From Candidatus Bathyarchaeia archaeon (lineage in GTDB: Archaea > Thermoproteota > Bathyarchaeia > Bathyarchaeales > Bathycorpusculaceae), in assembly GCA_049515895.1 (NCBI GenBank), contig JBEKTQ010000001.1, forward strand, positions 162,535 to 226,534: a stretch of DNA of 64,000 nt, written 5' to 3'. Shown in pieces: positions 43,255 through 44,216 of this stretch. The notes below the pieces were generated by a model. The model ran no database searches and was not told the origin of the DNA. It saw nothing but the letters and a program-made list of their open reading frames with translations. Positions within the stretch are counted from its first letter, which is position 1; the number at the start of each line of letters is the position of its first letter. Made by a program: the position numbers and the translations under genes.

Positions 43255-43583
43255 GGAGGAGCGCTCGGCAAGTTTTAACAAAGCAAATAATATGGGAAGC
43301 ATTTTTAAAGCTTACATTAGTTTGCTGCAACATCTTAATCTTGGCCTAATGAGCAGTTATTTTGTAAGCGACTTAGAAATATGACCCTTTGGCTCTTCTC
43401 TCGGTCATTTTCACAAAAAATTGCGCTCTTCATGTCAAATTGCGTAGTTCATGTCAAAAGCTGCCTGTTCCATTATGCAGAATGGTTGAAGTATCTTTCA
43501 GCAGAACCAACAATTTAGATAGAAAAGAATTCTTTTATTTGTTTAAGCAAGGAGTTTATTGCTTCAAGACTGTTAAAAACATG

Positions 43584-43591
43584 ATTTATAG
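43584..43591 (+). promoter_or_regulatory. TATA box for the candidate triple-domain ncRNA
   Basis: ATTTATAG preceded by purine-rich AAAAACATG, ~23 nt upstream of the closing-stem 5' arm. Confidence 0.5.
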
Positions 43592-43612
43592 AACCTAAGC
43601 CTATCTAACTTT

Positions 43613-43928
43613 GCAGGTTGGGAAGCACGCTTTAAATGCGATGCATCGAGACAAAGAGTGTACCAGTTAAAACAGCGGAAAACTGGTATGCGACTAAGAC
43701 TCTGTTTCGATGGGCTGAACATTGGACGCAGTGCATTGAGGCAATGAGCGTGTCAATTGAAACAGCGAAAGATTGATGCGCGGCAAAGACAAGGCTTCAA
43801 TGGGCTGAACATCACTATATGTTGCAGTGAGGCCATGAGCAGCACAGTCAAAACGGTGAAAGACTGTGCAACGACAAAGACATAGCCTCAGTGGACCGCG
43901 AACATGTTAAGGCTTAGACCCAACCTGT
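43613..43928 (+). ncRNA. Candidate structured ncRNA with three tandem pseudoknotted ~90-nt domains
   Basis: Closing stem CAGGTTGGG/CCCAACCTG; three units with covarying P1/P2 stems, 12-nt loops and loop-tail pairing; many G-U pairs on + strand. Confidence 0.8.
43642..43905 (+). repeat. Three diverged tandem repeats, period 90-91 nt
   Basis: Units start 43642, 43732, 43823; conserved TGCA.yGAG, RAAAC.G.GRAA, CWAAGAC, GAACAT. Confidence 0.9.
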
Positions 43929-44006
43929 TTAATTTTACTCAAACAAGAGATTTTGAATCTGTTACCAGCCACGTTGTTGTTTTCTCGCCGGAATGCTTGA
44001 TTTCAT

Positions 44007-44216
44007 TCATATCCTGTTGAAGTATTCTAGAGGAGCATACCAGAAAACGGTAATTGTCCTTTTGCATTCTGGATTTTCACATTTTACCTTGATTTTCATA
44101 ACATTACCATGAAAGCTATTTCGTATTGGTTTTGCTGATGAGAAGGCATTGTGAAGTTTATCCGGCGGTTCAACTTCAAAGGGTTTGTAACAATAAGGGC
44201 ATTCGAGAACAGCCAT
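44007..44216 (-). CDS. Small zinc-ribbon protein
   Basis: CPYC...CENPEC. Confidence 0.75.
   Translation of the reverse strand: MAVLECPYCYKPFEVEPPDKLHNAFSSAKPIRNSFHGNVMKIKVKCENPECKRTITVFWYAPLEYFNRI

Follow-up and report, generated by a model that had tools for sequence, protein, structure and literature searches.

Which RNA is made from the non-coding element at positions 43613-43928 of this window, and what might it do? The window is the whole stretch of DNA analysed, 64,000 nucleotides (nt) of contig JBEKTQ010000001.1 of Candidatus Bathyarchaeia archaeon, and positions refer to it unless another contig is named. The initial annotation described the element as a forward (+) strand RNA gene with three pseudoknotted units inside a closing stem of 9 base pairs (bp). 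The analysis showed a new structured RNA family, real and well supported, with a route of biogenesis that is known in kind and new in use. The mature RNA is a circle and not a set of monomers. The evidence makes it likely that this is a dedicated gene with the circular non-coding RNA as its sole product, a stable and multivalent RNA that would bind or regulate a protein.

Circular product and its excision

Four metatranscriptome runs, in the form of assembled contigs and not of raw reads, were compared with positions 43400-44100. Contig cover was confined to 43629-43917 in all four runs (4/4), with none in the flanks or the outer helix, and missing cover in the flanks is not by itself evidence of silence. 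A back-join of 43917 to 43629 was found in two runs from two studies, X2 (depth 44.9, with a shorter side of 30 nt) and X8 (depth 4.07, 69 and 97 nt flanking), which bore out the earlier suggestion to look for circles in metatranscriptomes. The joint shows no shared letters and lies outside the repeated units. Loose contig ends before 43629 read ..CUUAAGGCUUAG, and contigs of relatives in other runs showed the same junction type (..AAGGCUUAG|GCUUUAA..). At the DNA level, 4.0 Mb covering the own genome and homologous loci contained no head-to-tail junction; a loose search there gave 20 matches, all unrelated.

The cut positions and the joined junction are observed, and the joint coincides to the base with the two cut sites predicted for a motif of the bulge-helix-bulge (BHB) type, each behind the second base of its bulge. 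It follows that the mature RNA is a circle of 289 nt with all three units, and the proposal of a precursor cut into monomers had to be given up. The complementarity of CAGGTTGGG (43614-43622) with CCCAACCTG (43919-43927), followed by a T-rich run from 43928, was confirmed. The 9-bp stem does not close the mature RNA, however, as had been supposed: it is the exon-side BHB helix and is missing from the RNA contigs. To judge from its sequence, the "closing stem" is the outer helix of a canonical archaeal BHB motif.

The excerpted text of PMC7714728 defines the hBHBh' form of this motif by flanking helices h and h', each of at least two Watson-Crick pairs. The window motif has a 9-bp helix h, the 4-bp spacer AAGC/GCUU (helix H), an inner helix h', two opposed 3-nt bulges on opposite strands (ACG at 43627-43629 and AGA at 43916-43918) and symmetric cuts in the bulges. 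The intron of a methionine transfer RNA (tRNA-Met) of the same genome, predicted with ARAGORN and taken as a control, has the same geometry (CUCA/UGAG with bulges UA|A and AC|A); both cuts fall behind the second base of a bulge, and the intron starts with the third base of the first bulge and ends with the second base of the other. The genome encodes the EndA family (PF01974) twice and RtcB (PF01139) once. ARAGORN placed introns in 11 of 47 tRNA predictions, several of them long or non-canonically placed (188, 444, 1998 nt) and some likely false; the count fits a genome that relies heavily on BHB splicing with two EndA-family genes. When the own genome was scanned loosely for BHB motifs, 32 candidates came up, and the family letters together with a perfect helix h were found only in the two known RNA genes; the remaining candidates were judged to be chance.

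The motif was aligned in 20 one-unit and 38 two-unit RNAs of the family. The conserved order of the frame was h, RAGY, the 3-nt bulge ANG, h', cargo, h', GCUY, the 3-nt bulge AGR and h. Helix H (4 bp) was paired in 58/58 RNAs (38/38 two-unit, 20/20 one-unit). Helix h was 96.8% paired in the two-unit RNAs (7/9 pairs covarying, n = 38) and 98.3% paired in the one-unit RNAs (10/12 pairs covarying, n = 20), giving 17/21 covarying pairs over both alignments. Helix h' was 93.3% paired in the one-unit RNAs, with 7/9 pairs covarying, and 79.5% paired in the two-unit RNAs. The letters GGCUYAG were present in 38/38 two-unit and 20/20 one-unit RNAs and in 9/9 RNAs of a second type described below. The splicing endonuclease is structure-specific and needs far less letter conservation than this frame shows, which suggests that the frame, or the hairpin left after ligation, is recognised by something.

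BHB-based biogenesis of the circle is well supported. Transcription would start about 25 nt after the TATA box and give a hairpin-like precursor with the BHB motif at its base. The archaeal splicing endonuclease, presumably EndA, would cut after the second base of each bulge (43628|43629 and 43917|43918), and RtcB would join the ends of the excised piece into the 289-nt circle, with a scaffold stem and three modules of about 83 nt. The resulting nuclease-resistant, multivalent RNA would then bind or regulate a protein, the linked protein described below being the first candidate and the number of modules setting the valency.

Module fold, gene layout and family

The 316-nt span folded with a minimum free energy of -121.4 kcal/mol on the + strand (z = -8.1), and 0 of 100 shuffles folded as well; z was -5.3 for the reverse (-) strand. 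Thermodynamic folding, linear or circular, mis-nests units 2 and 3, and a comparative model was therefore used. Covariation was counted in an alignment of 112 homologous units, with partners slid by 1-3 columns as the control. A large proportion of the cells (93.8%) were paired, against at most 36.8% with slid partners, and 24 of 25 pairs showed double-sided changes. The loop-to-tail pseudoknot was 99.3% paired, and 3 of its 4 pairs covaried (CG 108/AU 2; GC 57/AU 50/GU 4; GC 105/GU 5; CG 78/UA 25/UG 7). By this comparative evidence the pairing of the module is shown, and the covarying pseudoknotted domains of the initial annotation, with their three units of about 90 nt, P1 and P2 stems, 12-nt loops and pseudoknot pairs, were recovered in place by sequence and model matches.

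Pseudoknot letters differ between units within one RNA (CAGC/GCUG and CGGU/ACCG), and in two-unit RNAs with different letters per unit this argues for pairing of each loop with its own tail. In B-type units the third pair of P1 is kept as a mismatch of two purines (columns 6-71 in alignment A2, where 9/21 units are unpaired), and P1 of module 3 holds a G-G mismatch. The bases G17, A19, A33, A34, A43, A45, A63, A64 and A66 were near-invariant, each in 111-112 of the 112 units. The ending GAACAT, which had been described for each unit, is present in the units of the window and only loosely conserved across the family.

The 5' strands of P1 and P2 are separated by G-A only (each base in 111/112 units), and the 3' strand opposite holds the 9-nt GAYNAAGAC. 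A kink-turn (K-turn) consists of a C-stem, a 3-nt bulge and tandem G-A/A-G pairs that open the NC-stem. The GA is flanked directly by paired columns, 16-68 before it and G21-C58 after it. Columns 16-68 were paired in 99/112 units (UA 46, AU 30, CG 9, GU 8, UG 5, GC 1), so that no 3-nt bulge precedes the GA; columns 15-69, paired in 73/112 units, partly extend P1, and an A partner at column 60 was present in only 87/112 units. A canonical K-turn was accordingly rejected, and the K-turn-like junction of the earlier description did not hold in its canonical form. P1 (10-12 bp) and P2 (11 bp) are similar in length, and the 12-nt loop of P2 pairs with the tail one base after P1; since that tail lies just 3' of P1, P2 must fold back sharply along P1, which gives the probable three-dimensional shape of the module.

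Table 1. Features of the RNA gene in the window
Feature	Position	Strand	Remark
Promoter region: upstream element and TATA-like ATTTATAG (43584-43591)	43561-43591	+	about 25 nt 5' of the outer helix
BHB outer helix h, 5' strand (CAGGUUGGG)	43614-43622	+	pairs with 43919-43927; precursor only
BHB central 4-bp helix H, 5' strand AAGC	43623-43626	+	pairs with GCUU 43912-43915
BHB bulge 1, ACG; cut between 43628 and 43629	43627-43629	+	RNA contigs begin at 43629
Mature product, 289-nt circular RNA	43629-43917	+	metatranscriptome contig cover and back-join
Inner helix h' (scaffold stem), 5' strand CUUUAAAUG	43630-43638	+	pairs with 43903-43911, with a bulge
Module 1	43641-43723	+	covariance model R1, 93.5 bits
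Module 1, stem P1	43644-43653/43703-43712		
Module 1, stem P2 and loop	43658-43668/43681-43691		loop 43669-43680
Module 1, junction	43656-43657; 43692-43700		GA; GACUAAGAC
Module 1, pseudoknot	43673-43676/43714-43717		CAGC with GCUG
Module 2	43731-43813	+	R1, 90.1 bits; pseudoknot CAGC 43763-43766 with GCUG 43804-43807
Module 3, B-type unit	43822-43904	+	R1, 91.2 bits; pseudoknot CGGU 43854-43857 with ACCG 43895-43898
Inner helix h', 3' strand	43903-43911	+	
Helix H, 3' strand GCUU (43912-43915), and bulge 2, AGA (43916-43918); cut between 43917 and 43918	43912-43918	+	contigs end at 43917
BHB outer helix h, 3' strand (CCCAACCUG)	43919-43927	+	precursor only
T-rich run TTTAATTTT	43928-43936	+	likely archaeal transcription stop

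The three units of the window are about 78% alike, module 2 being a near-duplicate of module 1. The TATA-like sequence lies where the initial annotation had put it (Table 1). Among the homologous loci, a TATA-like hexamer was present 36-52 nt upstream of helix H in 49/62, a TTTGTnCAAAA-type upstream element was conserved in many, and T-rich tracts followed helix h in most; transcription would start and stop accordingly. The longest + strand open reading frame (ORF) that overlaps the element has at most 46 amino acids, and no + strand gene lies downstream in the window neighbourhood. The neighbours are a DsbD_2 gene, a 69-amino-acid ORF and a GDSL lipase gene, all on the - strand, with rpl13/rps9/rpoN upstream. 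This survey of ORFs and neighbours upheld the view of a stand-alone non-coding + strand RNA gene with no downstream cis target. A trans-acting, multivalent RNA, as also proposed earlier, is plausible.

A second three-unit copy is present in the same genome on contig C21 (13700-14011, +) with 94% identity by BLAST, which also detected homologues in relatives. The C21 copy stands behind the common promoter of the family (TTTTTTGTACAAAATTTGTTATATTTTA); the upstream element of the window copy differs and is common to loci L034 and L036. Identity this high between two old loci points to gene conversion or to a recent copying event. The 69-amino-acid ORF (44007-44216), on the - strand immediately downstream of the RNA gene, has a CxxC...CxxC spacing (MAVLECPYCYKPF...VKCENPECKR) that resembles a small zinc ribbon, with a faint Pfam match (DUF7410, E = 0.047).

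The distribution of the family was followed with covariance model R1, which describes one unit and was built from 21 units. The unit was found in 94/120 genomes of the genus (including 63/73 of high quality), in 74/151 genomes of the order sample, in 25/151 genomes of the class sample and in 0/131 genomes of the phylum sample, drawn from other classes of the phylum. Across 65 loci, in which the RNA gene is chromosomal, 22 RNAs had one unit, 39 had two and 4 had three, and the one-unit form is the form met in other orders. A pattern scan of viral contigs recovered the three units of the window and matched 16 viral loci, and 0 of 19 pattern-matched viral loci scored with R1 at E <= 0.1.

Searches with Rfam 15 gave 0 matches at the gathering score in the whole 64-kb window and none overlapping the element at E <= 10 (43400-44100), the only rows, a snoU30-like one and a fragment of a long non-coding RNA, being far below the cut-off. 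The earlier view that no known family was recognisable is thus confirmed, and the likeness to the c-di-GMP-II aptamer that had been mentioned found no support in Rfam, either at the gathering score or at E <= 10. The snoU30-like (C/D box) row lies just upstream of the gene (43463-43549, -; E = 0.93 and 19.4 bits, with the gathering score at 45) and is probably chance. Ribonuclease P (RNase P) RNA (RF00373) was found on contig C6, and the signal recognition particle (SRP) RNA (RF01857) was found elsewhere in 28/31 relatives, some of which carry this RNA too; both identities were accordingly rejected for the element. In the own genome, which is 100% complete in 53 contigs, archaeal SRP RNA was not found, probably through an assembly gap or a filter miss.

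Linked protein, other cargos and competing explanations

In several families the RNA gene is divergent to an ORF of about 215 amino acids. The linked protein gave no family match in Pfam, NCBIfam or PADLOC, and its own family comprised 212 clusters at E <= 1e-3 among 1.84 billion representatives. Its model (predicted local distance difference test, pLDDT, 96.8) shows an N-terminal helical hairpin and a PD-(D/E)xK-like core. Structural matches over residues ~49-205 reached Z 9.4 (3dnx), 8.8 (2okf, XisH) and 8.4 (1y88, AF1548), the background of the tool being 7-8; Foldseek rows were weak, all at E >= 1.7e-3, with a CdiA-CT toxin domain as the best row. The residues H53, E74, D83, E96 and K121 are invariant.

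The two genes tend to occur together. Among the 151 genomes of the order sample the protein was present in 70/74 RNA-positive genomes, 19 had the protein only and 58 had neither. The class sample had the protein in 23/25 RNA-positive genomes, and the two exceptions are 85% and 68% complete. Of 80 named Bathyarchaeia loci of the protein gene, 33 have a BHB RNA gene immediately upstream and in divergent orientation, 23 of these with the module RNA (type 1, by model R1). The protein gene also has such a neighbour in 6 of 17 additional loci, the 6 belonging to four other families. The named metagenome-assembled genomes with both protein and RNA are labelled Candidatus Bathyarchaeota or Bathyarchaeia. 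At loci L053, L058, L070, L047 and others, the RNA gene is flanked on one side by the PD-(D/E)xK-fold gene and on the other by a gene for an ATP-dependent DNA ligase, both of which run on the opposite strand; a rhomboid-like membrane protein gene lies beyond, and this synteny spans families.

The same frame also carries other cargos. Ten more of the 80 loci (L118, L130, L133, L143, L148, L153, L163, L164, L166 and L170) hold an unrelated inner RNA of about 140 nt (type 2) whose promoter and BHB letters are the same; it lies ~200-450 nt upstream of the protein gene, on the opposite strand and in divergent orientation. Type 2 has the conserved motifs GGCAAAGAACAGYUG and GCGAUNNCAUCAAA and a consensus fold of 37 pairs, 20 of them with compensatory changes, and three sister-genus genomes in which type 1 is missing (G190, G137 and G172) likewise have it beside the protein gene. 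The exact type-2 pattern matched 12 of the 151 class genomes, only 4 of the matches adjoining the protein gene; several of the others look like chance. The letters RAGY-ANG ... GGCUYAGRC are conserved across unrelated cargos. At least two further unrelated cargos were observed in the BHB frame beside the protein gene (L212/L223, L216/L224, L213, L219 and L195). L212 and L223 belong to one family and L216 and L224 to another; the motifs GGCGARCGAACCGAUCGUCC and GGAGGAGGCMAAUAGGG are common to L212/L223 and L216/L224, and L213 is very GC-rich.

Several points weigh against a dedicated circle with a protein partner. The RNA evidence consists of assembled contigs, with strand, transcription start and the circular-to-linear ratio outside their reach, and cleavage by EndA and ligation by RtcB were proposed from geometry and gene presence only. 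By its letters the module junction is not a canonical K-turn, a non-canonical variant being conceivable. A protein-partner function, suggested by gene linkage and co-occurrence, has weaker support than the fold, the BHB motif or the circle. RNA-positive genomes with no protein match make up 4/74 and 2/25 of the two samples, and the protein reaches much further than the type-1 RNA: in 51 class genomes it occurs with no type-1 RNA, and one family has it in 27/27 genomes with type-1 RNA in 1/27 and no adjacent BHB RNA in 8/8 loci examined. Among the 80 protein loci, 47 have no BHB RNA within 2.5 kb. In the own genome the protein gene is single-copy on contig C7, the RNA copies being on C1 and C21, and no BHB RNA lies beside it. 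Related genomes are not independent, and the co-occurrence counts are therefore suggestive only.

A wider reading, which we regard as possible and no stronger than that, is an as yet unrecognised ribonucleoprotein system. The BHB cassette would be a plug-in platform that circularises interchangeable cargo (the type-1 pseudoknot modules, type 2 and at least two further types), and the circle would be a subunit or regulator of the nuclease, with the modules setting stoichiometry. The ligation hairpin ..AAGGCUUAG|GCUUU.. or the cargo would recruit, activate or restrain the co-inherited PD-(D/E)xK-fold protein.

Five rivals follow in the order of their odds, from the likeliest down. The first, rather unlikely, would be an array of aptamers for a small molecule or ion, serving as a circular sensor or buffer in trans and needing no protein partner. 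The conservation is aptamer-like, with covarying stems and nearly invariant junction and loop bases, and the tandem copies recall tandem aptamers. Yet the gene has no expression platform and no downstream gene, the units match no Rfam aptamer family, and unrelated cargos with a common frame and neighbour gene point to a common protein context rather than to one ligand.

The linear trans-acting RNA of the initial annotation, its ends paired in the 9-bp closing stem, is improbable. No contig covers 43613-43628 or 43918-43927 in any of the four runs (4/4), contigs join 43917 to 43629, and the stem is placed exactly where the exon-side helix of the BHB motif lies; this outweighs the facts that the stem is real and covaries, that the 316-nt span folds well as a linear molecule and that the contigs are compatible with a pool of linear precursor.

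Lower still stand the odds of an antitoxin-like RNA in the style of type III ToxI, holding the PD-(D/E)xK-fold nuclease inactive. In type III systems the antitoxin is a set of tandem repeats that precedes the toxin gene in the same orientation, and the toxin processes it into monomers. Tandem pseudoknot units, the genetic link to a nuclease-fold protein and the best Foldseek row (the CdiA-CT toxin domain, weak at E = 1.7e-3) recall such a system. Here, however, the genes are divergent and not an RNA-then-toxin operon, the whole array is one circle, one-unit forms are common, PADLOC gave no match, and the pair is inherited vertically across the class with conserved synteny; in the own genome the single-copy protein gene is far from the RNA genes.

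It is very improbable that misassembly of the repeats produced an artefactual circle, or that the circle is a replicon, self-cleaving or viroid-like. Units that are 78% alike can confuse assemblers, and the evidence is contigs and not reads, but the joint lies outside the repeats with no shared letters, in two studies and at the exact BHB cut sites, and relatives show the same junction. No ribozyme family matched at E <= 10, and a replicon is further opposed by the chromosomal gene with its conserved promoter (65 loci) and by the 0/19 viral loci that score with the model.

In archaea an H/ACA RNA comprises one to three hairpins with an ACA behind each. Its pseudouridylation pocket has two sides, its upper stem holds a K-turn or K-loop, and the ACA adjoins the lower stem; C/D RNAs can also be circular. 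Such a guide for RNA modification, an H/ACA or C/D box small RNA with a K-turn bound by L7Ae, is hardly credible here despite the GAACAU unit ends of the window and the GA/GA motif, since the internal loop has GA only on its 5' side and hence no two-sided guide pocket, the internal-loop sequence is identical in all units, which would then share a single target, the ACA-like letters stand 7-9 nt beyond P1 with poor conservation, B-type units lack CUGA, and a loop-to-tail pseudoknot is alien to both guide families.

The dedicated circular RNA, probably with a protein partner, thus stays the preferred explanation. An entire gene family appears to serve the production of a structured circle; it is conserved across a major class of uncultivated archaea, and RNA libraries of several studies contain the RNA. 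To our knowledge, few structured RNA classes with strong covariation and a pseudoknot are known in archaea, and the family adds a new structured, pseudoknotted class to them. The linkage offers a first functional lead for an uncharacterised family of nuclease-fold proteins, and because the cut sites, the fold and the candidate partner are precisely stated, the function is directly testable in vitro.

Comparison with known systems

The c-di-GMP-II riboswitch, with its K-turn and pseudoknot, likewise folds helices back and pairs a loop with a 3' tail; the present RNA differs in having no Rfam match, no canonical K-turn and no regulated gene, and its host is archaeal. ToxI and tandem riboswitch aptamers share a small pseudoknotted fold in tandem with variable copy number; unlike them, the present RNA is not processed to monomers, has no co-directional toxin and no expression platform, and is inherited vertically. 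The circularly permuted SRP RNA of Thermoproteus reportedly matures through a BHB circle. Circular C/D box small RNAs are mentioned in the excerpted text of PMC12558985. Both are likewise functional stand-alone non-coding RNAs made via, or as, a circle produced by BHB processing or by ligase; the present RNA is not SRP RNA and has no C and D boxes.

This RNA is undescribed in the full-text literature searched; supplements could list it among unnamed circular RNAs. The excerpted text of bioRxiv 10.64898/2026.10.21.760802 makes no mention of it, and the Bathyarchaeia circles covered in that of PMC12918454 are ribosomal RNA (rRNA) circles only. The archaeal BHB circles treated in the excerpts of PMC7714728 and PMC12558985 are tRNA introns, 16S/23S rRNA circles and a Haloferax intron in a 5' untranslated region, other circles there having no BHB motif; they share with the present RNA the hBHBh' form, the cuts in the bulges and the circle. 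In those accounts the circle is an intron or intermediate of another gene, whereas this gene seems to make a circle only, its "exons" being stubs of about 15 nt. The present circle also differs from the BHB circles covered there in being a conserved, modular and highly structured RNA with BHB letters conserved across cargos.

The closest likeness in design is with engineered cassettes. tricRNA and Tornado are engineered circular-aptamer cassettes, and HARBOR (10.64898/2026.10.12.758436) is another. In such cassettes the cargo sits inside a processing frame, is excised and ligated by tRNA-splicing enzymes of the host, and is displayed as modules on a stable circle. Compared with these cassettes, the present RNA is natural and class-wide, has its own promoter and carries interchangeable natural cargos; nature thus uses the same design.

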